Shown here in pieces: positions 5,142 to 61,896 of a stretch of DNA of 64,000 nucleotides. The notes below the pieces were generated by a model. The model made no database searches and was not told the DNA's origin. It worked only from the letters and a program-made list of their open reading frames with translations. Source of the DNA: Ruminococcus sp. (GTDB lineage: Bacteria; Bacillota; Clostridia; Oscillospirales; Ruminococcaceae). The stretch covers positions 18,351 to 82,350 of the forward strand of contig SVNO01000002.1 in assembly GCA_015066845.1 (NCBI GenBank). The letters are read 5' to 3'. The first letter of the stretch is position 1, and the number at the start of each line of letters is the position of its first letter. Made by a program: the position numbers and the translations under genes.

Positions 5142-7760
5142 ATGAATGATGTGAACACAACTGCCAAGACGGAAGTACTGGTGGACAGTGTGGATACACT
5201 GATGGTAAAAATACAGGAAATCCGCGCAGCACAGGCAAAATTTGCATCCTACACACAGGAGCAGGTTGACAGAATCTTCAAGGCTGCGGCAATCGCTGCC
5301 AACCATGCAAGAATTCCGCTGGCAAAAATGGCTGTGGAAGAAACCGGCATGGGCGTTGTTGAGGATAAGGTCATCAAGAATAACTATGCAGCAGAGCATA
5401 TTTACAATGCTTTCAAAAATACCAAGACCTGCGGTGTCATCGAGGAGGATAAGGTGTTCGGTACAATGACCATCGCAGAGCCGATTGGTGTTGTCGCTGC
5501 CGTAATCCCCACCACAAACCCGACTTCTACCGCAATTTTCAAGTGCCTGATTTCTCTGAAAACAAGAAACGGTATCATCATCAGCCCCCATCCGAGAGCT
5601 AAGAAGTCCACAATTGCAGCTGCTAAAATTGTACTCGAAGCTGCTGTCAAGGCTGGTGCACCTGAGGGTATTATCGGCTGGATTGACATTCCCTCTCTGG
5701 AAATGACCAATACAGTGATGAAGGAATCCGACATCATTCTCGCAACCGGCGGCCCCGGCATGGTAAAGGCTGCATATTCCAGCGGTAAGCCTGCACTGGG
5801 CGTAGGTGCTGGTAATACCCCTGCCATCATTGATGTGTCCGCTGATATCCAGCTCGCTGTCAATTCCATCATCCACTCCAAGACTTTCGACAATGGCATG
5901 ATTTGTGCATCCGAACAGTCCGTCATCGTGGATAAGAGCATCTACAAGGATGTCAAGAAGGAATTTGAAAAGCGCGGCTGCTATTTCCTCACCGCAGAGG
6001 AAACGGAAAAGGTACGCAAGACCATCATCATCAACGGCGCACTGAATGCGAAAATCGTAGGTCAGCCGGCTGCTGTCATTGCGGAACTTGCCGGTGTCAA
6101 GGTGGACCCCGATACAAAGATTATCATTGGCGAAGTGACCAATGTTTCCATTGATGAAGAATTTGCACATGAAAAGCTTTCTCCGGTACTGGCAATGTAT
6201 AAGTCCGAAAACTTTGAGGACGCAATGGATAAGGCGGACAGACTCGTGCAGGACGGCGGCTTCGGTCATACTTCCTCGCTGTATGTGAATGCTGTTACAG
6301 AAAGAGAGAAAATCGCTGCATTTGGAGAAAAAATGAAAACCTGCCGTATTCTGGTCAATACACCTTCTTCCCACGGCGGCATCGGCGACCTTTACAACTT
6401 CAATCTCGCACCCTCTCTGACACTGGGCTGCGGTTCATGGGGCGGCAACTCCGTTTCTGAAAACGTTGGCGTAAAGCACCTGATCAATATCAAGACTGTC
6501 GCAGAGAGGAGAGAGAATATGCTGTGGTTCAGAACTCCGCAGAAGGTATACTTCAAAAAGGGCTGCCTGCCGATTGCCCTCGATGAGCTGAAGAACGTAC
6601 TGGGCAAGAAGCGCGTGTTCCTCGTAACCGACAGCTTCCTGTATAAGAATGGCTATACCAAGTGCATTACCGATAAGCTTGATGCTATGGGCATTGCACA
6701 CACCACCTTTGCCGACGTAGAACCCGATCCGACACTGCTCTCCGCACAGAAGGGTGCAGAGGCTATGACAAAGTTCGAGCCGGATTGCATCATCGCACTG
6801 GGCGGCGGTTCTGCAATGGACGCTGCAAAGATAATGTGGGTACTCTATGAGCATCCCGATGCAGACTTTATGGATATGGCAATGCGCTTTATCGACATCC
6901 GCAAGAGAGTTTACACATTCCCGAAGATGGGAGAAAAGGCATATTTCATCGCCGTTCCCACATCCTCCGGTACAGGCTCCGAGGTAACACCCTTTGCTGT
7001 TATCACTGACCAGAACACCGGTATCAAGTATCCGCTGGCAGACTATGAGCTGCTCCCGAATATGGCAATCATCGACACTGACCTGATGATGAGCGCACCC
7101 AAGGGACTGACCTCTGCATCCGGTATTGACGCGCTGACACACGCATTGGAAGCCTATGCATCCGTTATGGCAACTGATTACACAGACGGTCTGGCACTCA
7201 AGGCAATGAAGAATATCTTCGAGTACCTGCCGGCTGCTTACAATGACGGCAATGACGTAGTAGCCCGTGAGAAGATGGCAAATGCATCCACTATTGCAGG
7301 TATGGCGTTTGCCAATGCATTCCTCGGCGTATGCCACTCCATGGCGCACAAGCTCGGCGCATTCCACCACCTGCCGCACGGCGTTGCAAACGCGCTGCTG
7401 ATTATCGAGGTAATGCGTTTCAATATCGCAGCTGCACCGCGTAAAATGGGCACATTCTCTCAGTACCAGTATCCGCAGGCATTGGAGCGTTATGCGGAAT
7501 GCGCAAGATTCTGCGGCGTAAGCGGTAAGAATGACAATGAAGTATTCGAGAAGTTCTGCAAGAAGATTGAAGAACTCAAGGAAGCCATCGGCATCAAGAA
7601 GTGCATCAAGGACTATGGCATTGAAGAATCCGTATTCCTCGAAACACTCGATGAAATGACCGAGCAGGCATTCGATGACCAGTGCACTGGCGCAAATCCG
7701 AGATACCCGCTGATGAAGGAAATCAAGGAAATGTACCTGAATGCATACTATGGCAAATAA
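5142..7760 (+). CDS. adhE: Bifunctional acetaldehyde-CoA/alcohol dehydrogenase AdhE
   Basis: N-terminal aldehyde dehydrogenase domain (NGMICASEQS catalytic Cys region) fused to an Fe-ADH domain (GGGSAMDAAK, histidine-rich AHKLGAFHHLPHG). The ATG at 5142 has a GGAGAGG RBS. The ORF-track GTG at 5031 lies over the promoter. Confidence 0.96.
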   Translation: MNDVNTTAKTEVLVDSVDTLMVKIQEIRAAQAKFASYTQEQVDRIFKAAAIAANHARIPLAKMAVEETGMGVVEDKVIKNNYAAEHIYNAFKNTKTCGVIEEDKVFGTMTIAEPIGVVAAVIPTTNPTSTAIFKCLISLKTRNGIIISPHPRAKKSTIAAAKIVLEAAVKAGAPEGIIGWIDIPSLEMTNTVMKESDIILATGGPGMVKAAYSSGKPALGVGAGNTPAIIDVSADIQLAVNSIIHSKTFDNGMICASEQSVIVDKSIYKDVKKEFEKRGCYFLTAEETEKVRKTIIINGALNAKIVGQPAAVIAELAGVKVDPDTKIIIGEVTNVSIDEEFAHEKLSPVLAMYKSENFEDAMDKADRLVQDGGFGHTSSLYVNAVTEREKIAAFGEKMKTCRILVNTPSSHGGIGDLYNFNLAPSLTLGCGSWGGNSVSENVGVKHLINIKTVAERRENMLWFRTPQKVYFKKGCLPIALDELKNVLGKKRVFLVTDSFLYKNGYTKCITDKLDAMGIAHTTFADVEPDPTLLSAQKGAEAMTKFEPDCIIALGGGSAMDAAKIMWVLYEHPDADFMDMAMRFIDIRKRVYTFPKMGEKAYFIAVPTSSGTGSEVTPFAVITDQNTGIKYPLADYELLPNMAIIDTDLMMSAPKGLTSASGIDALTHALEAYASVMATDYTDGLALKAMKNIFEYLPAAYNDGNDVVAREKMANASTIAGMAFANAFLGVCHSMAHKLGAFHHLPHGVANALLIIEVMRFNIAAAPRKMGTFSQYQYPQALERYAECARFCGVSGKNDNEVFEKFCKKIEELKEAIGIKKCIKDYGIEESVFLETLDEMTEQAFDDQCTGANPRYPLMKEIKEMYLNAYYGK

Positions 7761-32392: not shown

Positions 32393-32964
32393 AGGAAATG
32401 ACAGCCGTTCTTGCACAGCGGCTTTCACAGAAGCGGTTCCGGCATTCCTGTAATGTCGCGCAGGCCGCCAGAGAGCTTGCCAAGCGATATGGCGCGGATG
32501 CAGACAAGGCGTATTTTGCAGGTCTTGTCCATGACATCTGCAAGGAATTGCCCTTTGAGGAGCAGGAACAGCTTGTGCTTGCCAGCGACATGCAGCCTGA
32601 TTTGGCAGAGCTGCATTCCAAAAAAGTCTGGCATGGTATTGCCGGTGCACAGCTTTTGCGTACGGAATTCGGCATTACGGATATGGATATTCTCAATGCT
32701 GTGCGCTTTCACACGGTCGGCAGGGCGCAGATGAGCCTGCTTGAGGAGATTATCTACATCGCGGACATGATTTCCGAGGAACGCGATTACAAGGGTGTCG
32801 GCAGAATGCGCCGGCTTGCCTATGAAAATCTACAGGAGGCAATGCTGGAGGCATTACAGGATTCCGCCGCAGCCGTCCTGAAAAAGGGTGTAATGCTGCC
32901 GGAATACAGCATTGCTGCCTATAATTATTATTTGTTGCTTCTGAGAAAGGACGAGTTGAAATGA
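32380..32964 (+). CDS. yqeK: HD-domain bis(5'-nucleosyl)-tetraphosphatase YqeK
   Basis: HS..VA...GLVHDICK HD motif, in the conserved position after nadD. Confidence 0.85.
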   Translation: MEQVKEMTAVLAQRLSQKRFRHSCNVAQAARELAKRYGADADKAYFAGLVHDICKELPFEEQEQLVLASDMQPDLAELHSKKVWHGIAGAQLLRTEFGITDMDILNAVRFHTVGRAQMSLLEEIIYIADMISEERDYKGVGRMRRLAYENLQEAMLEALQDSAAAVLKKGVMLPEYSIAAYNYYLLLLRKDELK

Positions 32965-34136
32965 GCAAGAAGAAAAAGTCTTCGGCTTCTTCCATTGCAC
33001 TGAATATCTGCATCAAGCTTGCGGCAATTGTTTCAACGATTGCACTGATGCTGACCATGGTGCTCAATGTCCCGATTATCGCTTATCATGAATTCGATGG
33101 AAAAACCACCAAGGTGGAAAATCTTTCCATCGTCAACTACCTCAAACAGCGCAAGCCCATGATTCATGTGGAGGGTACCATCTCCCGAACTGAGTCAAAG
33201 GATGTGGAGCTGCGCAGTGATGTGGAGCTGATTGAGAATGACGGACTTGACCTGAACCAGACCATCGAGGGACAGTACACCATCCTGTTCCTTGGTTTCG
33301 ATACCATTACCAACGGCAGCGGTAATCTGCATGATGTGAATTATCTGGTGCAGTTCAATCTGCTGACAGCCAGCATGAACATCCTCCAGATTCCGCGTGA
33401 CACTTATATGCCGGACTATACTAACGCATCCTCTGGGAAATTCAACAGCATTTATTCGTTCGGTGATTCGAGCGTCAGCAATATCCAGCGCGTTGTGGAT
33501 ACCGTGCAGCAGTGCTTCGGCATTCCCGTGGATGCCTATGTCACCACCTCCTGCGACAATATCGTGGAGATCGTGGACATCATCGGCGGCATTCCGATCA
33601 ACATGCCCTATACCGTGTACTATGAACCGGGCAAGATTATTTACGAGGGCGAGCAGGTGCTCAACGGCACACAATCGGAATGGTTCGTGCGCTACCGCAG
33701 CGGCTACAACGAGGGCGACATCGGCAGAGTCAAGGCACAGCGTATCTTCCTTGCGGCAGCAATGAAGAAAATGCTGGATATGGGCAGTTTCAAGATGATG
33801 AGCTGTGTCAATGAAGTCTACGAAAAGGAGCTTCTGGCAACCGACCTGAGCCTTGCGCAGATCAGCATGATTGCCGACCTTGCATCCACCATCAGCATGG
33901 AGAATGTCAATGTCTACATGCTTCCCGGCGAAGGCGCGGACGCGTATGGACAGTCCATCTGGTCAGTTCACAAGCGCGCTGCACTGGAAATCGTCAACGA
34001 ACATTTCCGCACCCAGCAGGTACGTCTGCGTGACGACCAGAGCGCATTGATTGAATGGGTGCCGGAGGGCAGCTACCGCAATACTCTCAATGATGATACA
34101 GAACAGAGCTTTGAAGAGCTTTACAACAAAGATTAA
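32961..34136 (+). CDS. LCP (LytR-CpsA-Psr) family glycopolymer transferase
   Basis: N-terminal TM anchor followed by ILFLGFD...NILQIPRDTY...KFNSIY...RSGYNEGDIGRVKAQR. Confidence 0.85.
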   Translation: MSKKKKSSASSIALNICIKLAAIVSTIALMLTMVLNVPIIAYHEFDGKTTKVENLSIVNYLKQRKPMIHVEGTISRTESKDVELRSDVELIENDGLDLNQTIEGQYTILFLGFDTITNGSGNLHDVNYLVQFNLLTASMNILQIPRDTYMPDYTNASSGKFNSIYSFGDSSVSNIQRVVDTVQQCFGIPVDAYVTTSCDNIVEIVDIIGGIPINMPYTVYYEPGKIIYEGEQVLNGTQSEWFVRYRSGYNEGDIGRVKAQRIFLAAAMKKMLDMGSFKMMSCVNEVYEKELLATDLSLAQISMIADLASTISMENVNVYMLPGEGADAYGQSIWSVHKRAALEIVNEHFRTQQVRLRDDQSALIEWVPEGSYRNTLNDDTEQSFEELYNKD

Positions 34137-45331: not shown

Positions 45332-46168
45332 ATGAAACGAATACTGACCATTCAGGATATTTCCTGCATCGGGAAATGCTCCGTCACCGCGGCATTGCCC
45401 ATTCTGTCCGTCATGGGCATTGAAACGGCAATCCTGCCGACAGCGGTGCTCTCTGCGCATACGGCTTTTGCAAGCTATACCTTTCACGACCTGACAAGCG
45501 AAATGCCTGCCATCATCGCCGACTGGAAAGCGCAGGGGATTACTTTTGACGCGATTTATACGGGCTATCTCGGCTCTATTGCGCAGGTTTCCATTGTCGA
45601 ATCCCTGCTTTCGCAGTTCCGCACAGAAGATACCCTCCTGTTCGTAGACCCCGTTCTGGGTGATTTCGGGCGGCTCTACAGCGGTTTTTCCATGGATTTT
45701 CCGCATCATATGAAACGCCTGTGCAAGGCGGCTGATGTCATTGTCCCCAATCTCACCGAAGCTTGCTGTATGCTCGACATTCCTTACCCTGACGATGGCT
45801 ACACGGATACAGAAATCTGTCGTATTCTCCAAGGACTTGCAGGATTTGGCGCAAAACAGGTGATTCTTACCGGTGTCAGCTTTGCCGATGACAGCGTGGG
45901 CTTCATGGGCTATGACGCAGTACGTTCGGAATACTTTTCCTATTTTCACCAGAAATTCCCCCAGCAGTTCCATGGTACGGGCGATGTGTTCGCAAGTACC
46001 TGCGCCGGCGGACTGCTCCGCGGACTCTCTCTCGAAGCGTCCGCATGTCTTGCTGAGGATTTCACGCTCGAATGCATCCGCAAAACCTGCGCAGCTCCCG
46101 ATCAACGCTGGTACGGAGTCCATTACGAAGCGGCATTTCCGTTCCTCATACACCGCCTGTATCCATAA
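45332..46168 (+). CDS. pdxK: Pyridoxamine/pyridoxal kinase
   Basis: ILTIQDISCIGKCSVTAALPILSVMGIE...TGYLGS...DPVLGD...GTGDVFAS (ribokinase-fold PdxK/PdxY); AAGGAG RBS. Confidence 0.85.
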   Translation: MKRILTIQDISCIGKCSVTAALPILSVMGIETAILPTAVLSAHTAFASYTFHDLTSEMPAIIADWKAQGITFDAIYTGYLGSIAQVSIVESLLSQFRTEDTLLFVDPVLGDFGRLYSGFSMDFPHHMKRLCKAADVIVPNLTEACCMLDIPYPDDGYTDTEICRILQGLAGFGAKQVILTGVSFADDSVGFMGYDAVRSEYFSYFHQKFPQQFHGTGDVFASTCAGGLLRGLSLEASACLAEDFTLECIRKTCAAPDQRWYGVHYEAAFPFLIHRLYP

Positions 46169-46173
46169 TCCAC

Positions 46174-46204
46174 AGCCCTGACGGTCAGACCGCAGGGCTT
46201 TTTG
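46174..46204 (+). terminator. Intrinsic terminator after pdxK
   Basis: Stem AGCCCTG/CAGGGCT followed by TTTTTGT. Confidence 0.7.
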
Positions 46205-46266: not shown

Positions 46267-46295
46267 TTGCAAAACCACGCGGAATGGTGTATAAT
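46267..46295 (+). promoter_or_regulatory. Promoter of the MBOAT operon (TTGCAA-17-TATAAT)
   Basis: Hexamers at 46267-46272 and 46290-46295. Confidence 0.7.
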
Positions 46296-46363
46296 AAAGG
46301 ATGTGGAATTTTGTCGAATGAATAGGATTCCGTGGATTAAAGATAGAATATGAGGCAATAAAA

Positions 46364-47764
46364 ATGATATTTTCAAGTTTGATTTTTCTGTATCTGTTCC
46401 TGCCCATTTGTCTGGGCAGCTACGGCGCAGCAAGAACAATGCGCGCCAAGAACATGGTACTGATTCTCTTTTCCCTGTTTTTTTACGCCTGGGGCGAGCC
46501 GGTGCGTATTCTCCTGCTGCTCCTGAGCGCGTTTCTCAATTATTTCTTTGGCATCGGGGTGCGAACTTATCAGGGAAAGGCAGCGAAAGCCATCCTTGGG
46601 GTAAGTATCGCATACAACCTCGGTATGATTGGGGTATTCAAATACAGTGGATTCCTTGTGGAAAACATCAATGCCATTTTTGGCGCAGGATTCCCTGTTC
46701 CTGAAATTGCCCAGCTGGTCGGCATCAGTTTCTACACGTTCCAGATTTTGTCCTATGTGGTGGACTGCTACTGGGAAAAGGTCGAACCGCAGCGCGATTT
46801 TATGAAGCTCCTGCTCTATGTATCACTCTTTCCGCAGCTCATTGCAGGCCCGATCGTGCGCTACAGCACCATCGCCGCAGAAATCGACCAGCGGCATACC
46901 ACCCTTGAGGACCTCAGCTGCGGATTGTCGCGTTTTATCATCGGTCTGTCGAAAAAAGTCATCCTTGCCGACCAGCTGTTCCGCATTGTGGACGATTTCC
47001 TCGGCGGTACGCCAGAATCCCTCTCCATTGTCGGAACATGGTATGGCGTGATACTCTATTCGCTCTACATTTACTTCGATTTTTCGGGCTATTCCGATAT
47101 GGCAATTGGTCTGGGAAGGATGTTCGGTTTCCATTTTGACGAGAATTTCCGCCACCCGTTCCTGTGCAAGGACATCACGGAATTCTGGCAAAGATGGCAT
47201 ATTTCCCTCGGCTCGTTCTTCCGCGATTATGTCCTGCCGCTGCCGGTATTCGGTCTGCGCAACAAGTACCTGAGCCTGTTCGTGGTATGGCTGTGTACGG
47301 GCATCTGGCACGGCGCAAGCTGGAATTATGTCCTCTGGGGCTTGTATTACGGCGCATTCATCATGCTTGAAGCATGGCTTGGCAAGAAGAAAATGCGCAG
47401 CATTCCGCTGCCTGTCCGCCACCTCTACAGCAAAATCGTCATTATCATCGGCTTTGGTATTTTCTACTTCGAGGACGGCAGCCAGCTGCTGCAATTCTTT
47501 CGCAATATCACGCTGTTCAATCCTAACGGCTTTCTGAGCACCATGGAGAAAATGTCGTTCTGCAACAATCTTTTCCTGATTATCGCAGCCATCATCTGCG
47601 TTTTCCCCATTCTCGAAATCCCGAAGAAAATCGCAGCCACATCACCGAGAGCCAAGAATGTTACCATGCTGCTCTCCACACTCACACAGGCGGCTTTGCT
47701 CATTACCAGCAGCATCCTGCTCGTGGATGCGACCACCAAAGCATTCCTGTACTATCGCTTTTAA
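46364..47764 (+). CDS. MBOAT-family membrane O-acyltransferase (DltB/AlgI-like)
   Basis: Polytopic membrane protein with the invariant His motif FWQRWHISLGSFFRDYV. Confidence 0.9.
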   Translation: MIFSSLIFLYLFLPICLGSYGAARTMRAKNMVLILFSLFFYAWGEPVRILLLLLSAFLNYFFGIGVRTYQGKAAKAILGVSIAYNLGMIGVFKYSGFLVENINAIFGAGFPVPEIAQLVGISFYTFQILSYVVDCYWEKVEPQRDFMKLLLYVSLFPQLIAGPIVRYSTIAAEIDQRHTTLEDLSCGLSRFIIGLSKKVILADQLFRIVDDFLGGTPESLSIVGTWYGVILYSLYIYFDFSGYSDMAIGLGRMFGFHFDENFRHPFLCKDITEFWQRWHISLGSFFRDYVLPLPVFGLRNKYLSLFVVWLCTGIWHGASWNYVLWGLYYGAFIMLEAWLGKKKMRSIPLPVRHLYSKIVIIIGFGIFYFEDGSQLLQFFRNITLFNPNGFLSTMEKMSFCNNLFLIIAAIICVFPILEIPKKIAATSPRAKNVTMLLSTLTQAALLITSSILLVDATTKAFLYYRF

Positions 47765-47775
47765 GGAGGAACTGA

Positions 47776-49248
47776 ATGAACCAGCAGCCCACACAGGGAA
47801 TTGATATAGAGCTTCCGCAGGATGCTCCGAGTCCGGCAGCCGCACCAAAAACCGTGCGCAGCCGTCCTTCCATGCGGCCAGAGCGTCGTTACTATGCTGT
47901 AAACGTCCTTGTGCTTTTCTTTATTTTTGCCGCAATTTCGCTCTTTTTAGTTTTTGGCAAGCGTCCGGAAAAATCCGCCGAGGAGAACCGCGACCTTGCA
48001 CCCTGTCCGCGTTTTTCTCTCTCGTCCTATTTTGATGGGAGCTTTACCACGGAGTTTTCCCAGTATTTCAATGATTCTGTGCCCATGCGCAGTTTTTTCA
48101 AGGGTGTCATTGCCGATTTCCGCGGCAATCTGGGCGTACCCTATGACGAGGAAATCATCCTCATTGGCAGCATTCCGGAGGTGGAGAAAATCACCGAGCC
48201 GAACGAAACCGAACCGCATACGCAGTTCGCGCCCATGCAGGCACAGCCGACCGTCCCCACGGAGTATGAACCTGCCACACGTCCGACGGAACCAGCCACC
48301 ACCGGTCAGGAAATCGCCGATCCGACAGAAGCAACAGAGCCGGAGAATGACTACGAGAATTTTGACGGTGAAATTGCCAATAATATTCTCATTGTCAAGG
48401 ACCGCGGACTGATGCTCTACAACGGCACACAGAAAAATGCCGAGTATTATGCAAAAACGCTCAATGCTTACAAGACCGCACTCGGCAGCGATGTGAATGT
48501 CTATTCCCTCGTTGCTCCCACTGCCGTGTCCTACTATCTCCCGTCCAAATTCGCCGACTGTACGGCAAGTGAAAAGGACAATATCAACCATCTCAACAGC
48601 TTATTTGAGGATGTTGTGCCGGTTGATGCCTACGGTGCTCTGGAGGCGCACAAATCGGAAGCCATCTATTCCCGTACCGACCACCACTGGCAGCCCCTCG
48701 GCGCATACTATGCGGCAGAGGAATTTGCAAAGACCGCCAGTGTGTCCTTTGCGCCCATGAGTGCCTATGAAACCGCAGCACTGGACAATTATGTCGGAAC
48801 GCTCTACGGCTACACGGGCAATGCGGTATTCAAGGACAATCCCGAACCGTTCGTTTACTATAAGCCCACCAATGCATTCACCACGACCTATTACAATACC
48901 GACATGACCAATGCCCGTGAGGGCAGCCTGCTCCTGCGCAATGTGGAGCAGCTTGACCCGTCAAGCTGGTATCTGGTGTTCATGGGCGGTGATGACCGCA
49001 TCACCCATATCACCACCGACTGCACCAACGACAGACGGCTGCTGATAATTAAGGACAGCTACGGCAATGCCCTCGTGCCCTGCCTGACGCGCTCGTTCTC
49101 GGAAATCTGGGTGATTGATATGCGCTATTTCGAGCCGAAAGTGGTGGATTTCGCCAAGGAACATGAAATTACCGATGTCCTCTTTGCGATGAACACATTC
49201 AGCGCGATGGGCGGCAATGCCAAAAATCTCGAAACAATTATGAAATAA
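47776..49248 (+). CDS. DHHW-family protein (AlgX/AlgJ/DltD-like SGNH-type acyl transfer partner), membrane-anchored and extracytoplasmic
   Basis: Single TM YYAVNVLVLFFIFAAISLFLVF, a Pro/Thr/Glu-rich linker, and the SRTDHHWQPLGAYY motif. Confidence 0.85.
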   Translation: MNQQPTQGIDIELPQDAPSPAAAPKTVRSRPSMRPERRYYAVNVLVLFFIFAAISLFLVFGKRPEKSAEENRDLAPCPRFSLSSYFDGSFTTEFSQYFNDSVPMRSFFKGVIADFRGNLGVPYDEEIILIGSIPEVEKITEPNETEPHTQFAPMQAQPTVPTEYEPATRPTEPATTGQEIADPTEATEPENDYENFDGEIANNILIVKDRGLMLYNGTQKNAEYYAKTLNAYKTALGSDVNVYSLVAPTAVSYYLPSKFADCTASEKDNINHLNSLFEDVVPVDAYGALEAHKSEAIYSRTDHHWQPLGAYYAAEEFAKTASVSFAPMSAYETAALDNYVGTLYGYTGNAVFKDNPEPFVYYKPTNAFTTTYYNTDMTNAREGSLLLRNVEQLDPSSWYLVFMGGDDRITHITTDCTNDRRLLIIKDSYGNALVPCLTRSFSEIWVIDMRYFEPKVVDFAKEHEITDVLFAMNTFSAMGGNAKNLETIMK

Positions 49249-49263
49249 TTTCAGGAGGAAACC

Positions 49264-51045
49264 ATGCTCCAAGAACTCTGCTATCCTTTCGATAGTGACG
49301 TTATTCTGCAAAAACGCCGCCGTTTTCTGCGCATTCTCAAGGAACAGGAAGCCAATGCAGTGCCGCTGCGCATTGCCGTGCTTGGTGGCTCGACCACAAG
49401 CGACATCCTCTCCACACTCGAATTATTCCTGCGCAACCGTGGCATTGCCCCGACGTTCTGGGAATCGGAATATGCCCAGTACTGGAACGATGCCATGTTC
49501 CCGAACACATCGCTTGAAGCCTTTCAGCCGGAACTGATTTTCATTCACACCAGCAGCCGGAATGTACAGAATTTTCCGAAAATCGGCGATTCTGCGGAGG
49601 ATGTTGAGCAGAAACTTGAACAGACCTATGCGCATTTTTCCCAGATGTGGGACAGACTCTCGCAGGTCTACCAGTGTCCCATCATCCAGAACAACATGGA
49701 AATGCCCCTGACAAGACTCATGGGCAACCGCGAGGTCGGCAGCATCCACGGGAGCATTGACTTCCTCACGCGCCTGAACTGCTGCTTCTATGACTATGCA
49801 AGAACACACCGGAATTTCTATCTCCATGACATCAACTACCTGTCCGCCTGTTACGGGCTGGACAAATGGGCAGAGCCATCCTACTGGCATCTCTACAAAT
49901 ACGCGCTCTGTGTGCCGGCAATTCCGGAATTTTCCTATAATCTGAGCAATATCATCTGTTCCCTGATGGGAAAAAACAAAAAAGTCCTTGCCCTCGACCT
50001 TGACAATACCCTCTGGGGCGGTGTCATTGGTGATGACGGACAGGCTGGCATTGAAATCGGGCAGGAAACCTCGGTCGGGCAGGCATATGCAGCACTGCAA
50101 ACCTATGTAAAAGCCCACAAGGAGCTGGGGGTTCTGCTGACCGTTTGCTCAAAAAATGACCATGAAAACGCAATTTCCGGTCTGGAGCATCCGGAGGGCA
50201 TTCTCAAGCCCGATGATTTTGTCTGCATCAAGGCGAACTGGGAGATGAAATCGCAGAATATTGCCGATATGGCGCAGGAATTGAGTCTGCTGCCGGAGAG
50301 CTTTGTCTTTGTGGACGATAATCCTGCGGAACGTGCCATTGTGCAGGCGCAGCTGCCGGATACTGCCGTGATTCCGTTTGATTCCGTGGAGGACTGCATT
50401 TTGCGTCTGGACAGGGCAGGGTATTTTGAAGTGACAAATCTTTCCGCGGACGATGCCAAACGCAATGCCATGTACATGGAAAATGCAAAACGGCAGGCGG
50501 CACAGGCGAAATTCACCGATTACAAGGATTTCCTGAAAAGCCTTTCCATGCAGGCAGAGATCCGCGATTTTGACGCGGTATCCCTCCCCAGAATCACACA
50601 GCTGACCAATAAGAGCAACCAGTTCAACCTGACCACAAAACGCTATACACAGGCAGAAATGGAAGTCGTTGCTGCAAGTCCGGCGCATATCCGGCTGTAT
50701 GGACGACTGGAGGATACCTTCGGGGACAACGGTATTGTGTCGGTTGTCATCGGCAGAAAAGATGGGAGTGCTCTGCATGTGGAGCTGTGGCTGATGAGCT
50801 GCCGCGTTCTCAAGCGCGATATGGAGTATGCCATGCTTGACGCGCTTGTGGAAGAATGCCGGAAACAGGGGATTTCCGAGATTATTGGGTACTATTATCC
50901 CACGAAGAAGAACGCCATGGTTGCGCAATTGTACGCAGCATTCGGCTTTACTAAAACAGCGGAGGACGGAGAGGGGAATACTGTCTGGAATCTGCAAATT
51001 CACGACTATACAAACCGTAATTCCGTAATCAATGTCACCCACTAA
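49264..51045 (+). CDS. FkbH-like HAD-IIIC phosphatase/acyl-loading enzyme
   Basis: HAD motifs LALDLDNTLWGG, CSKND and FVDDNPAER. C-terminal acyltransferase-like half with WLMSCRVLKRDME (a conserved Cys, as in FkbH/OzmB). Confidence 0.85.
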   Translation: MLQELCYPFDSDVILQKRRRFLRILKEQEANAVPLRIAVLGGSTTSDILSTLELFLRNRGIAPTFWESEYAQYWNDAMFPNTSLEAFQPELIFIHTSSRNVQNFPKIGDSAEDVEQKLEQTYAHFSQMWDRLSQVYQCPIIQNNMEMPLTRLMGNREVGSIHGSIDFLTRLNCCFYDYARTHRNFYLHDINYLSACYGLDKWAEPSYWHLYKYALCVPAIPEFSYNLSNIICSLMGKNKKVLALDLDNTLWGGVIGDDGQAGIEIGQETSVGQAYAALQTYVKAHKELGVLLTVCSKNDHENAISGLEHPEGILKPDDFVCIKANWEMKSQNIADMAQELSLLPESFVFVDDNPAERAIVQAQLPDTAVIPFDSVEDCILRLDRAGYFEVTNLSADDAKRNAMYMENAKRQAAQAKFTDYKDFLKSLSMQAEIRDFDAVSLPRITQLTNKSNQFNLTTKRYTQAEMEVVAASPAHIRLYGRLEDTFGDNGIVSVVIGRKDGSALHVELWLMSCRVLKRDMEYAMLDALVEECRKQGISEIIGYYYPTKKNAMVAQLYAAFGFTKTAEDGEGNTVWNLQIHDYTNRNSVINVTH

Positions 51046-51057
51046 AGGAGGAAGAAC

Positions 51058-51300
51058 ATGAACAGAGAGCAGAAAATGGCAAAGCTCACAGAAATTTTTC
51101 AGGACGTATTCGATGACGACACCATCACCCTGACGGACGCAACCTGTGCGCAGGACATTGAGGACTGGGACAGTCTGGAGCATATCAATCTGATCGGTGC
51201 AGTGGAACGTGCATTCAAGATGCGTTTTACCGTCCGTGAAGTCAGCGGTATGAAGAATGTCGGCGAGATGCTGGATATTCTGGAGGAGAGGGCGAAGTAA
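51058..51300 (+). CDS. Acyl/peptidyl carrier protein (DltC-like size)
   Basis: 80 aa; DWDSLEHINLI phosphopantetheine attachment serine. Confidence 0.85.
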   Translation: MNREQKMAKLTEIFQDVFDDDTITLTDATCAQDIEDWDSLEHINLIGAVERAFKMRFTVREVSGMKNVGEMLDILEERAK

Positions 51301-51336
51301 AAACATTGGCGACAAGTGCAGAAAGGAATAATCAAT

Positions 51337-51777
51337 ATGTCGAAAACGAATCAGACATGCAGTCTCCCCGAAATTATCAGCTTTCTGGAAAACAGAAATT
51401 TTGACAAATTCCGTTTTGCGGATGATTATGCCTATATTTACAATTCAGATGGTATTGAAATCGTGATGGAAGCGGTTGATGAAAAAATAACCGATGAAGT
51501 TGCAGATCTGGCTGTCAATGCTCTGAATCATCTTGATCACTGTATGGAAACTGCACAAGGCATGTTAAAACGCATGAAAGGTGAATGCATCGGTGAGCGG
51601 ATGATCTATGGTATCTGTTTTGAACATTTCGGCTACGGATATGAAACCAGAACGTCATATGAACTGGGGTTCACCATCTCCTTTCACTATGAATACGACA
51701 ATCGGATTCATACGGTGAAATTCAATGCCCGTACTTTTATGCATGGGGCATTTGCAATTGAAGAATGGATTCAGTGA
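51337..51777 (+). CDS. Hypothetical protein (AT-rich, atypical codon usage)
   Basis: 146-aa ORF 36 nt after the carrier protein gene and upstream of the operon terminator. I recognise no motif. The ATG at 51337 follows AAAGGA. Confidence 0.55.
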   Translation: MSKTNQTCSLPEIISFLENRNFDKFRFADDYAYIYNSDGIEIVMEAVDEKITDEVADLAVNALNHLDHCMETAQGMLKRMKGECIGERMIYGICFEHFGYGYETRTSYELGFTISFHYEYDNRIHTVKFNARTFMHGAFAIEEWIQ

Positions 51778-51823
51778 AAAAACAAACACCTGAAAAGACC
51801 AGAAATCTTTTCAGGTGTTTTTC
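51777..51823. terminator. Bidirectional terminator between the MBOAT operon and xth
   Basis: 13-bp stem AACACCTGAAAAG/CTTTTCAGGTGTT flanked by A- and T-runs. Confidence 0.8.
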
Positions 51824-59754: not shown

Positions 59755-61896
59755 ATGAAAAAACAGCTATTGAGCATTTTGCTTGTACTGGTCATGATCA
59801 TCGGTATCATGCCGGTCAATGCATTTGCAGAAAACAACAGTGCAGACGCTTCTGAAACGGAGTCATACGGCACATTCATTGACGGTGAACAGGTTCTCAG
59901 AGATATGCTTGAAGCGAACGGAATGTATGCCCATCCGCGCATCATCATGTCTGAGGAACGGTTTGCGAAGTTGAAGAAAAGCGTCGGGAGTGATTCCGTC
60001 ACAGGTGTTCTTCTTGAAAAACTGCGCAGTGAAGCCGACAGAATCCTGACTGCGCCCGTAGCGCAATATGAGATCCCCGATGGCATCCGACTGCTTGAAA
60101 CATCCAAACGAATCCAGCGTCGTGTTGCCGCCCTTGCAATGGCGTACAATATTTTCGGCGAGGAACAATATGCGCAGCGGTGCTATGCAGAGCTTGAAGC
60201 GGCATGTCATTTCAAGGACTGGAATCCCAGACATTTTCTCGATACGGCTGAAATGACAACGGCGTTCGCTCTCGGCTATGACTGGCTGTATCATTGGATG
60301 AATGAGGAGCAAAGGGCATTGCTCAGAGAGAACATGATTGAAAAAGGACTTAATCAAGTGATGGAGGATTACGAGGACAAGCCACGGGAACGTACCTACA
60401 AGTGGTATCAGGACTATCCCGGCGACAACTGGAAACTTGTCTGCAACGGCAGTATGAGCATGGCGGCACTTGCCATCGGCGATGAAGCGGATGCAAAAGA
60501 CATTGCTTCCGATGTGCTGAACTATGCCTACAAGGAATCCTACTCCTTTGTCCGCCGTGCCTACAGCGCAAAGGACGGCACATACAGTGAAGGACTGGGT
60601 TACTGGGATTATGCTACTTATTATCTTGGTTTGCTTTCCTCCTCACTGATCAGCACCACCGGAACCGACTATGGTCTTGCTGATTATGAAGGCGTCCGCA
60701 AGTCTGTTGATTTTGTCCGCTATATGAGCTCAAATACCCCGAAATCCTTTAGCTTCGGCGATGATGGTGACAGCCGTGATACGGGATGGGCAGTGCTTCT
60801 GTGGCTGGCAGAGTATTACCAGTCGTACGATTACGCTTTGACTCGTCTTAAGAAAATAGAAAACGATAGCTTTTATTATCTGGATGTTCTCTGGATTGAT
60901 GAGGAAAAGACTTCTGAAGCATCCAAGGATAGTCCCACGGACTGGGGAGAGGTCGGTGCATCCAATGCGAGCTTTAGAAATACATGGGACGAAAGCGGCA
61001 TCGTGACAGCACTTCATGCCGGTGAAAATAATTATAAGTATCACGGACACTACGATTTGGGTACATTCTACCTTGAATCGAACGGCGCAAGATTTTTCAC
61101 AGACCTTGGCAATGAGAACTACGAGCTGGACAATCGCAAGTATTCCTATCGCATCAGAGCCGAGGGACATAATACGCTTGTCATCAATCCCTCCACGGAG
61201 CTTGACCAGGCAGAGGGTGCGGAATGTCTGATTACCGAATTCAGTGCAGGGGACGAAGCCTATGCCCTCACGGATTTGACTGCCGCGTATGCACAAAGCG
61301 GTGCAGAACGTGTTGTCCGCGGTCTGAAAATGATAAAAGAGCACGAATGCGTGATCGTGCAGGATGAAATTTCCCTGAAAGAAAACGGCGAAATTTACTG
61401 GTTTGCGCATACCAAAGGACAAATTGCAGTTGCAGACGATGGCAGAAGTGCGGTTGTGACTGTTGGTTCTGAGAGAATGTGGGTAGAAATCATCAGTGAA
61501 GACGGGAAATTTACCGTGATGAATGCCGAATCGCTGCCGACATCCCTCAGCGTTCCCAACCAGAGCGACAACAGCGAATACCGAAAGCTTGCTGTTCATC
61601 TGACCAATACCAAGGAAGCTGCAATTGCAGTTGCCTGCATTCCGCTGAAAGAGGGCGAATCCAAGCCAGCATGGATTCCGTCCATGAATGCGTTGTCCGA
61701 GTGGGCACCCAAAGTGATAGAGGGGGATGTCAATGCGGACGGGCAATGCAGTGTTGCGGATGTAATTGCACTCCAGAAATGGCTGCTCTGTGTTCCGGAT
61801 GCTGCACTGGCTGACTGGAAAGCCGGCGACCTGTGCGAGGACGGCAGAATTGACGCATTTGATTTGTGCATGATGAAACGGAAACTATGGAAGTAA
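59755..61896 (+). CDS. Secreted heparinase II/III-like polysaccharide lyase with a C-terminal type-I dockerin
   Basis: Signal peptide; alpha/alpha-toroid N domain (HPRIIMSEERFAKLKK, RIQRRVAALAMAY, DWNPRHFLD); heparinase II/III C domain (YKYHGHYDLGTFYLESNGARFFTDLG, RAEGHNTL); dockerin GDVNADGQCSVADV...GDLCEDGRIDAFD. Confidence 0.85.
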   Translation: MKKQLLSILLVLVMIIGIMPVNAFAENNSADASETESYGTFIDGEQVLRDMLEANGMYAHPRIIMSEERFAKLKKSVGSDSVTGVLLEKLRSEADRILTAPVAQYEIPDGIRLLETSKRIQRRVAALAMAYNIFGEEQYAQRCYAELEAACHFKDWNPRHFLDTAEMTTAFALGYDWLYHWMNEEQRALLRENMIEKGLNQVMEDYEDKPRERTYKWYQDYPGDNWKLVCNGSMSMAALAIGDEADAKDIASDVLNYAYKESYSFVRRAYSAKDGTYSEGLGYWDYATYYLGLLSSSLISTTGTDYGLADYEGVRKSVDFVRYMSSNTPKSFSFGDDGDSRDTGWAVLLWLAEYYQSYDYALTRLKKIENDSFYYLDVLWIDEEKTSEASKDSPTDWGEVGASNASFRNTWDESGIVTALHAGENNYKYHGHYDLGTFYLESNGARFFTDLGNENYELDNRKYSYRIRAEGHNTLVINPSTELDQAEGAECLITEFSAGDEAYALTDLTAAYAQSGAERVVRGLKMIKEHECVIVQDEISLKENGEIYWFAHTKGQIAVADDGRSAVVTVGSERMWVEIISEDGKFTVMNAESLPTSLSVPNQSDNSEYRKLAVHLTNTKEAAIAVACIPLKEGESKPAWIPSMNALSEWAPKVIEGDVNADGQCSVADVIALQKWLLCVPDAALADWKAGDLCEDGRIDAFDLCMMKRKLWK
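61714..61893 (+). other. Type-I dockerin module
   Basis: Two Ca-binding repeats, DVNADGQCSVADVIALQKWLL and DLCEDGRIDAFDLCMMKRKL. Confidence 0.8.

Follow-up and report, generated by a model that had tools for sequence, protein, structure and literature searches.

How might a bacterial envelope acylation cassette load its own carrier protein when no adenylating ligase accompanies it? The question is raised by four adjoining genes in a 64,000-nucleotide stretch of DNA from Ruminococcus sp. (contig SVNO01000002.1), referred to here as the window, in whose coordinates all positions are given unless a related locus is named. An earlier note, made from the letters alone, had described these genes as a Dlt-like operon that lacks its ligase. 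Judging from our sequence analysis, we lean slightly toward a reading in which the four genes make up a self-contained module, one that would decorate an extracytoplasmic polymer with O-glyceroyl groups, the donor being a carrier-protein thioester rather than an acyl-CoA. The genes, which together span positions 46364 to 51300, are as follows.

46364 to 47764, + strand: open reading frame 1 (ORF1), a PatA/AlgI-type MBOAT protein of 466 amino acids (PF03062, 90.9 bits; cut-off, 27).
47776 to 49248, + strand: ORF2, a membrane-anchored DHHW-family SGNH-like O-acyltransferase of 490 amino acids (PF14286, 153 bits; cut-off, 25; full model covered).
49264 to 51045, + strand: ORF3, a three-domain FkbH-like enzyme of 593 amino acids, the predicted glyceryl-S-acyl carrier protein (ACP) synthase (TIGR01686, TIGR01681, PF21211).
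51058 to 51300, + strand: ORF4, a dedicated ACP of 80 amino acids (phosphopantetheine site Ser38 in DWDSLEH; match to PDB entry 2LML).

The gaps between the genes measure 11, 15, and 12 nucleotides, in agreement with the spacing of 11 to 15 nucleotides reported previously. The four family assignments made from the letters hold in profile searches (Pfam, NCBIfam/TIGRFAM), and all of the motifs quoted with them were located (WHISL, DHHW, DLDNT, SKND, DDNP, SCR, and DSL).

Loading of the carrier would fall to ORF3. This protein matches the FkbH model TIGR01686 with 283.3 bits (cut-off, 146.65) over model positions 3 to 320 of 323 and the HAD-IIIC model TIGR01681 with 64.3 bits (cut-off, 35.75). 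It consists of an FkbH_N domain (PF21211), a HAD-IIIC phosphatase domain, and a GNAT-fold domain that carries Cys513, with the motifs DLDNT, SKND, DDNP, and SCR at positions 245, 296, 351, and 512, respectively. The N-terminal and HAD parts match the structure of Bacteroides fragilis BF1531 (3SLR; E value, 1.8e-47). An AlphaFold2 (AF2) model of ORF3 (pLDDT, 80) superimposes with its first two domains on the same structure (TM score, 0.82), and its C-terminal domain matches GNAT folds. The GNAT fold is a pantetheine-binding scaffold, and the modeled C-terminal domain would thus fit acyl transfer to the arm of a carrier protein. Alignment with ZmaN, which forms glyceryl-ACP and which we identified on pBMB400 from its position within the zwittermicin cluster, gave an E value of 4e-34 with all motifs in register (DLDNT/DLDCT, SKN, DDNP/DDQP, and LMSCRV/LMSCRV). 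The proposed FkbH relationship therefore extends over the catalytic positions, that is, the Asp motifs of the HAD domain and the cysteine of SCR. When Clostridia, Sinorhizobium meliloti, two Streptomyces clusters (one of the FabH-like/FkbH-like/ACP tetronate type), a Clostridium perfringens plasmid, and ZmaN were represented in a seven-sequence alignment with ORF3, residues D245, D247, S296, K297, K329, D351, D352, and S512-C513-R514 proved invariant. By this measure, every residue that FkbH chemistry should need is present in ORF3. Members of the FkbH family from several clusters convert 1,3-bisphosphoglycerate to glyceryl-S-ACP via a Cys thioester and HAD-type dephosphorylation (PMC7489565).

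The putative recipient of this acyl group, ORF4, is a small acidic protein related to 2LML, a solved putative ACP (E value, 2.4e-18), and its Ser38 aligns with the DSL serine that opens helix 2 of that structure. All six frames of the window lack an AMP-binding core motif, and none of the cassette genes matches an AMP-binding profile, so that the reported lack of a DltA-like adenylating ligase stands. Likewise, no phosphopantetheinyl transferase was found among ten small ORFs and the genes that lie within 10 kb of the FkbH-like gene in either direction, a check that covered part of the window.

On the membrane side of the proposed pathway, ORF1 has a core that resembles the DltB structures 8JEM and 6BUG (E value, 1e-24), and its invariant catalytic histidine, His279 in the WHISL motif (motif start, 278), aligns with these structures. 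Identification of ORF1 as DltB itself was rejected, given its score of 156.5 bits with the equivalog model TIGR04091 (cut-off, 375) and its differing architecture. The difference lies at the C terminus, where two hydrophobic segments (residues 395 to 425 and 435 to 454), corresponding to extra C-terminal transmembrane helices, precede the terminal hexapeptide FLYYRF (residues 461 to 466). This hexapeptide conforms to the acyl-shuttle motif FxYxxF, with Tyr463 as its tyrosine. In Dlt systems, the shuttle motif resides on the microprotein DltX, whereas in PatA, AlgI, and their relatives it is fused to the MBOAT protein via two extra C-terminal helices (PMC12148441). PatA acetylates the tyrosine of its own motif from acetyl coenzyme A (acetyl-CoA) and then passes the acyl group to its SGNH partner (PMC12148441). 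Hence, a DltX-like peptide, which the earlier note had listed as absent, is only seemingly missing because the shuttle is built into the MBOAT protein. Such a tail is found in 82 of the 84 MBOAT proteins that cluster beside FkbH-ACP pairs; the two without it are that of locus L081, which has a terminal Tyr, and one of the two in L032.

ORF2 is the presumed extracytoplasmic partner. Hydropathy analysis indicates a single transmembrane helix (residues 38 to 64), which is followed by an ENR motif at position 70 and a linker rich in Pro, Thr, and Glu (residues ~135 to 195). The catalytic blocks comprise DHHW (302 to 305), KDSYGN (start, 426) with the Ser nucleophile, and DMRY (448 to 451). In Pfam profile searches the protein matched DHHW and ALGX (29.4 bits for the latter) and gave no DltD match. 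The Ser, DxRY, and DHHW blocks align with those of Bacillus cereus PatB1 (5V8D; E value, 1e-14), the characterized DHHW member, which acts as an O-acetyltransferase of secondary cell-wall polysaccharide together with its MBOAT partner PatA1 (PMC9487903). The closest solved relative, again with aligned catalytic blocks, is PDB entry 4NZK (EUBSIR_00411 of [Eubacterium] siraeum; E value, 7.6e-73). With respect to overall architecture, the description as a Dlt system minus its ligase therefore had to be revised: the cassette corresponds to the PatA1/PatB1 type, with an MBOAT protein that carries a fused FxYxxF motif and a DHHW protein, to which an FkbH-ACP donor module has been added.

Do these four genes belong together? 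A scan with ORF3, limited to one genome per species, yielded 408 relatives, of which the best 80 loci were kept, and the neighborhood counts derive from 7-kb flanks in which ORFs were called in a simple way and clustered. In 78 of the 80 loci the FkbH-like gene is followed by or adjacent to an ACP gene, the remaining two being truncated contigs. The complete order MBOAT-DHHW-FkbH-ACP recurs in 17 loci of Oscillospiraceae and related bacteria, 16 of them exact (L001 to L003, L005 to L012, L014, L015, L019, L031, and L079) and one, L081, with a duplicated DHHW gene. In L001 to L010, the cassette is flanked by pdxK and xth, just as it is in the window; its surroundings are unrelated genes in L011, in L031 and L079, and in L081, giving at least four genomic settings overall. 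Across these loci, the four proteins lose identity to their counterparts in the window in parallel (r, 0.88 to 0.95). Since the genomic sites vary while the proteins diverge in step, the cassette travels and evolves as a unit. The co-conservation in related genomes on which the operon reading depends is thus evident at several genomic sites.

Beyond the exact cassette, FkbH-ACP pairs keep similar company. Among 81 FkbH-ACP loci, 61 have an MBOAT gene no more than 7 kb away, and an SGNH-type partner (DHHW, GDSL, or DltD-like) is encoded as well in 49 of the 61. Several of the apparent MBOAT absences reflect the limits of flanks or contig ends; for example, L035 is shorter than L064. By our rough estimate, a random gene would have an MBOAT gene within 14 kb by chance in ~1 to 2% of cases, against the ~75% observed. 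The link to MBOAT/SGNH genes recurs with three types of SGNH partner and in two phyla. In Lachnospiraceae we find two layouts (< and >, gene directions): DltD-like<, MBOAT<, GDSL>, FkbH>, ACP>, VOC<, MBOAT>, GT2>, and further on DUF6044; and MBOAT>, GT2>, (DUF6020), then GDSL>, FkbH>, ACP>, and further on VOC<, GtrA>, DUF6044>, radical SAM>, GDSL. These modules sit among GT2, GT4, GtrA, and DegT genes and hence in glycan loci. The loci of the L016 to L074 group, such as L041 (3016 to 15497), combine two different shuttle-motif MBOAT proteins with GDSL and DltD-like partners and a radical SAM/SPASM gene. On pSymB of S. meliloti the full module comprises a VOC protein, an MBOAT protein ending in FLYQGF, a 409-amino-acid protein with a single transmembrane segment, an ACP, and an FkbH-like enzyme. 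The 409-amino-acid protein has no Pfam or PDB match; it contains GGST and DPGH motifs, recognized by eye only, and is possibly SGNH-like. In strain BL225C (pSINMEB02; L083, 3204 to 9089, with the ACP gene at 6937 to 7158) the module lies near KpsM/T-like ABC transporter genes, and ~40 S. meliloti plasmid records hold the FkbH-like gene of this version.

Taken together, these data suggest the following route. First, the FkbH-like enzyme would take up the glyceryl unit of 1,3-bisphosphoglycerate as a thioester on Cys513, its HAD domain would remove the 3-phosphate, and the glyceryl group would be passed to the phosphopantetheine on Ser38 of the adjacent ACP, as might be expected from family membership. 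Second, and here we follow gene context, glyceryl-S-ACP would dock where the MBOAT protein opens to the cytoplasm, in the way that D-alanyl-DltC docks on DltB. We consider the MBOAT protein the consumer of the acyl-ACP because it is the only cytoplasm-facing candidate in the cassette, the DHHW protein facing outward. Third, by analogy with PatA and DltB/DltX, His279 would catalyze acyl transfer to Tyr463 in the FLYYRF shuttle at the outer face of the membrane. Finally, by analogy with PatB1, the tethered DHHW protein would accept the acyl group on the serine of KDSYGN and hand it to a hydroxyl group of a wall-bound or secreted glycopolymer, yielding an O-glyceroyl ester. In support of this scheme, none of the four proteins has lost a catalytic motif. 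Glyceroyl groups are known on bacterial glycans, and their genetic basis has been called a major challenge (PMC5378307). We regard it as probable that the carrier protein is the acyl donor of the MBOAT protein and, granted that it is, we would expect with somewhat greater assurance that the acyl group is glycerate.

Several observations weigh against this proposal. To begin with, ORF4, which is tied to the MBOAT protein by gene context, remains below curated ACP cut-offs: it scores 19.4 bits with the PP-binding model PF00550, just under the cut-off of 20.8, and at most 30 bits with NCBIfam ACP models that have cut-offs of 66 to 84. Moreover, PatA, the characterized member of the architecture type to which ORF1 belongs and the bearer of the same C-terminal motif, uses acetyl-CoA (PMC12148441), and MBOAT/DHHW pairs that do without a carrier are known and have been assigned to O-acetylation. 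Possibly, then, two separate functions merely share a location. The MBOAT and DHHW proteins would constitute an acetyl-CoA-dependent O-acetyltransferase like PatA1/PatB1 and CcsH/CcsI, and the FkbH-ACP pair would supply glyceryl-ACP to something encoded elsewhere, for example a glycan N- or O-acyltransferase of the cytoplasm, lipid synthesis, or the formation of a small metabolite. FkbH-ACP pairs without a nearby MBOAT gene do exist in many genomes, including those in secondary metabolism (L082, L084, L085, L087, L094, and L095). A universal linkage between FkbH-ACP pairs and MBOAT genes was consequently rejected: the FkbH-like genes of Ralstonia, Burkholderia, Streptomyces, the Bacillus zma cluster, and C. 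perfringens plasmids lack an MBOAT neighbor and lie in contexts of the secondary-metabolite type. For instance, the mobilizable C. perfringens plasmid pZ1322PCP0054-3 (L087, 1 to 10001) carries VOC, ACP, and HAD-IIIC/FkbH-like genes next to a radical SAM gene, a nucleotidyltransferase gene, and two genes for ABC transporters but none for an MBOAT protein; judging from this gene content, the FkbH-ACP-VOC trio seems to be put to another use there. In addition, a DHHW-DHHW-FkbH-ACP cluster (L093, 4937 to 9597) has no MBOAT gene in the 4.9-kb upstream stretch, nor is there one in the stretch examined of the Ruminiclostridium locus L077 (1166 to 9012), in which four DHHW paralogues precede the FkbH-ACP pair. 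The latter two loci suggest several acceptor specificities served by one shared donor, with the MBOAT protein encoded elsewhere. Against mere co-location, the compact cassette offers no second consumer for an acyl-ACP and nevertheless stays together from one genomic site to another, and the recurrence with three SGNH partner types in two phyla is not explained by chance adjacency at the frequencies estimated above. On balance, we consider separate functions rather unlikely.

The glyceroyl-transfer proposal further assumes that the acyl group reaches the acceptor as plain glycerate, which may not always hold. A VOC/glyoxalase-family gene is present in 35 related loci, and in some Lachnospiraceae loci MaoC dehydratase and SDR genes come after the ACP gene, indicating that tailoring is common. 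The MaoC and SDR genes hint at processing of the ACP-bound unit, which might, for example, be epimerized or converted to a lactyl group; an FkbH plus DH plus KR route to lactyl units occurs in polyketide loading modules. It is therefore conceivable that the relay is carrier dependent and moves a different acyl group, either because another phosphorylated acyl donor is used or because unlinked enzymes convert glyceryl-ACP to, e.g., a lactyl, hydroxymalonyl, or epimeric form. In contrast to the Lachnospiraceae loci, the cassette in the window has no tailoring gene, and the HAD and Cys motifs of ORF3 are fully conserved. We consider a nonglycerate acyl group unlikely.

Finally, the acceptor has to be considered. 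The window contains no glycan-synthesis locus that would name it, and a module working as we propose might instead act on a membrane glycolipid or lipoteichoic acid, on peptidoglycan, or on a surface protein. Precedents are available, as Dlt targets lipoteichoic acid and PatA/PatB targets peptidoglycan (PMC12148441). On the other hand, PatB1, the characterized DHHW protein, acylates a secondary cell-wall polysaccharide (PMC9487903), and the Lachnospiraceae versions of the module lie in glycosyltransferase-rich loci. A nonpolysaccharide acceptor, which we deem very unlikely, would in any case be a sub-case of the glyceroyl-transfer model and would not contradict it. Elsewhere in the window, 12 kb from the cassette, a gene of the LytR-CpsA-Psr (LCP) family is found at 32961 to 34136 (+ strand). 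LCP enzymes attach wall glycopolymers to peptidoglycan, and the presence of this gene shows, as far as its sequence goes, that the organism makes wall-linked polymers. A 713-amino-acid protein with DSE-like_N, Hepar_II_III_C, and dockerin domains, encoded at 59755 to 61896 (+ strand), points to a Ruminococcus-like host that bears cellulosomes. Together with the nearest genome matches, the presence of a dockerin-bearing protein assigns the window to an organism of the Oscillospiraceae or similar to Ruminococcus.

Is the cassette expressed as a separate entity? It is flanked by housekeeping genes (ABC-F, pdxK, xth, M18 peptidase, coaE, and prfA), and the following features bear on its transcription.

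46174 to 46204, + strand: likely the intrinsic terminator at which transcription of the pdxK-like gene ends (AGCCCUG...CAGGGCU hairpin followed by UUUUU; -18.2 kcal/mol; z score, -2.6 versus shuffled sequences).
46267 to 46295, + strand: candidate sigma-70-type promoter (TTGCAA-17-TATAAT; 10 of 12 consensus positions, a consensus match only).
51337 to 51777, + strand: fifth ORF, 146 amino acids (ribosome-binding site AAAGGA; called as a gene in public assemblies).
51784 to 51820, either strand: two-way intrinsic terminator common to the cassette and the convergent xth gene (stem of 15 to 17 bp, T-runs on both strands).

The hairpin and U-run on the pdxK side lie directly 3' of the stop codon of the pdxK-like gene, which ends at 46168; a consensus terminator scan had overlooked them, as the apical part of the hairpin exceeds the loop limit of the scan. 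With this terminator on one side and a candidate promoter site of its own, the cassette looks like a separate transcription unit, set off from the pdxK-like gene. Both the promoter-like site and the bidirectional terminator that the earlier note had placed at its ends are present, although promoter-like consensus sites are about twofold more frequent across the region than in shuffled sequences (16 observed versus 8.5 expected). The content of the unit needs correction: the four genes are there as described, but the unit holds five ORFs, the extra one being that at 51337 to 51777. It starts 36 nucleotides after the ACP gene and ends 6 nucleotides before the terminator hairpin, and public metagenome contigs show identical calls for all five genes of the region. 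An Rfam search of the cassette leader revealed no riboswitch or other known RNA, the sole match being a chance snoRNA hit far below threshold.

The fifth ORF is an unlikely companion in function. It has no match in Pfam, NCBIfam, PHROG, PADLOC, or PDB sequence searches, and only 6 homologue clusters turned up in a collection of 5.8 billion proteins. AF2 predicts an alpha/beta protein with confidence (pLDDT, 85; pTM, 0.82), and the model has no significant fold match in the PDB. The gene occurs in just one (L005) of the 80 related loci, and a homologue elsewhere adjoins DUF6472 and SMI1_KNR4 genes, away from any cassette. We have therefore rejected it as a member of the pathway; by its position it is probably cotranscribed, while lying outside the conserved module.

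Peptidoglycan, teichoic acids, alginate, cellulose, and wall polysaccharides all receive acyl groups from MBOAT-SGNH relays, which also shape recognition by the host and resistance to lysozyme and antimicrobial peptides. We see an even chance that the cassette represents the first MBOAT-SGNH envelope acylation outside Dlt that is fed by a carrier protein, loaded from a glycolytic intermediate without an ATP-dependent ligase. It would esterify wall or secreted glycans with glycerate, would be widespread among the Oscillospiraceae and Lachnospiraceae of the gut, would occur in Sinorhizobium as well, and would count the 4NZK protein among its terminal transferases. From a bioinformatic point of view, the proposed carrier-fed arrangement of the MBOAT protein appears well supported. 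If correct, it would break the current two-way picture, in which Dlt relies on a carrier protein and all other pathways rely on acyl-CoA (PMC12148441). It would also introduce a new acyl chemistry into Gram-positive envelopes, a hydroxy-acid ester drawn straight from glycolysis, provide a genetic handle on glyceroyl decorations, and assign a role to the orphan crystal structure 4NZK. Given that the module is common in abundant Clostridia of gut and rumen, it could matter for surface recognition between host and microbe. In the literature, our coverage of which is incomplete and extended to FkbH in polysaccharide settings and to glyceryl transfer to gellan, we came across no account of such a gene arrangement and none of an FkbH/HAD-IIIC enzyme joined to an MBOAT system.

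How, then, does the cassette compare with known systems? Dlt is the only characterized MBOAT/SGNH relay with a carrier-protein thioester as donor, and it runs from the MBOAT histidine via the FxYxxF tyrosine to an extracytoplasmic SGNH-like transferase (PMC12148441), a logic that the cassette would share. The components of the two differ. The Dlt loader is the adenylating enzyme DltA, whereas that of the cassette is an FkbH-type HAD/GNAT enzyme; the shuttle is carried by the DltX microprotein in Dlt and is fused to the MBOAT protein in the cassette. Furthermore, ORF1 remains below the DltB cut-off as detailed above, its partner is a DHHW protein and not DltD, DltC is not among the PDB matches of the cassette ACP, and the predicted acyl group is glyceryl instead of D-alanyl.

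The donor side of the cassette resembles FkbH, OzmB, ZmaN, and the tetronate synthases, with which it shares the HAD-IIIC domain, the Cys-bearing C-terminal domain, and the adjoining ACP gene, and the Streptomyces FabH-like/FkbH-like/ACP cluster encodes the same long three-domain form as ORF3. In those systems, however, glyceryl-ACP is delivered to polyketide synthase/nonribosomal peptide synthetase or tetronate machinery, whereas the cassette has no polyketide synthase, FabH-like enzyme, or dehydrogenase and neighbors MBOAT and DHHW genes instead. A different link between FkbH and glycans is offered by cj1302 in the flagellar glycosylation island of Campylobacter jejuni, an FkbH-domain gene in a glycan-modification locus beside an "epimerase" gene (PMC7099621). 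The latter parallels the VOC genes beside FkbH-ACP pairs, and glyceroyl-type derivatives of pseudaminic acid are known (PMC5378307). In contrast to the proposed relay, the Campylobacter modification takes place in the cytoplasm on a nucleotide sugar and involves no MBOAT-SGNH transfer across the membrane.

On the acceptor side, the L093 cluster encodes, in the company of an FkbH-ACP pair, a protein whose aligned stretch shows 95% identity to 4NZK, although that locus differs from the cassette in its upstream MBOAT-free stretch. The nearest counterparts in architecture are PatA1/PatB1 of B. cereus and CcsH/CcsI of Clostridia, which likewise consist of adjoining MBOAT and DHHW genes with a C-terminal FxYxxF motif in the MBOAT protein and, in the case of PatB1, align with ORF2. 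These pairs have been described without a carrier protein and assigned to acetyl transfer, in line with the statement that MBOAT/SGNH pathways outside Dlt lack a carrier protein and use acyl-CoA, as opposed to Dlt, which does use a carrier (PMC12148441, a 2025 paper). The cassette adds cotranscribed and co-conserved FkbH-like and ACP genes. Hence, by its gene content, the cassette is a pair of the PatA1/PatB1 type onto which a polyketide-style supply module for glyceryl-ACP appears to have been grafted.

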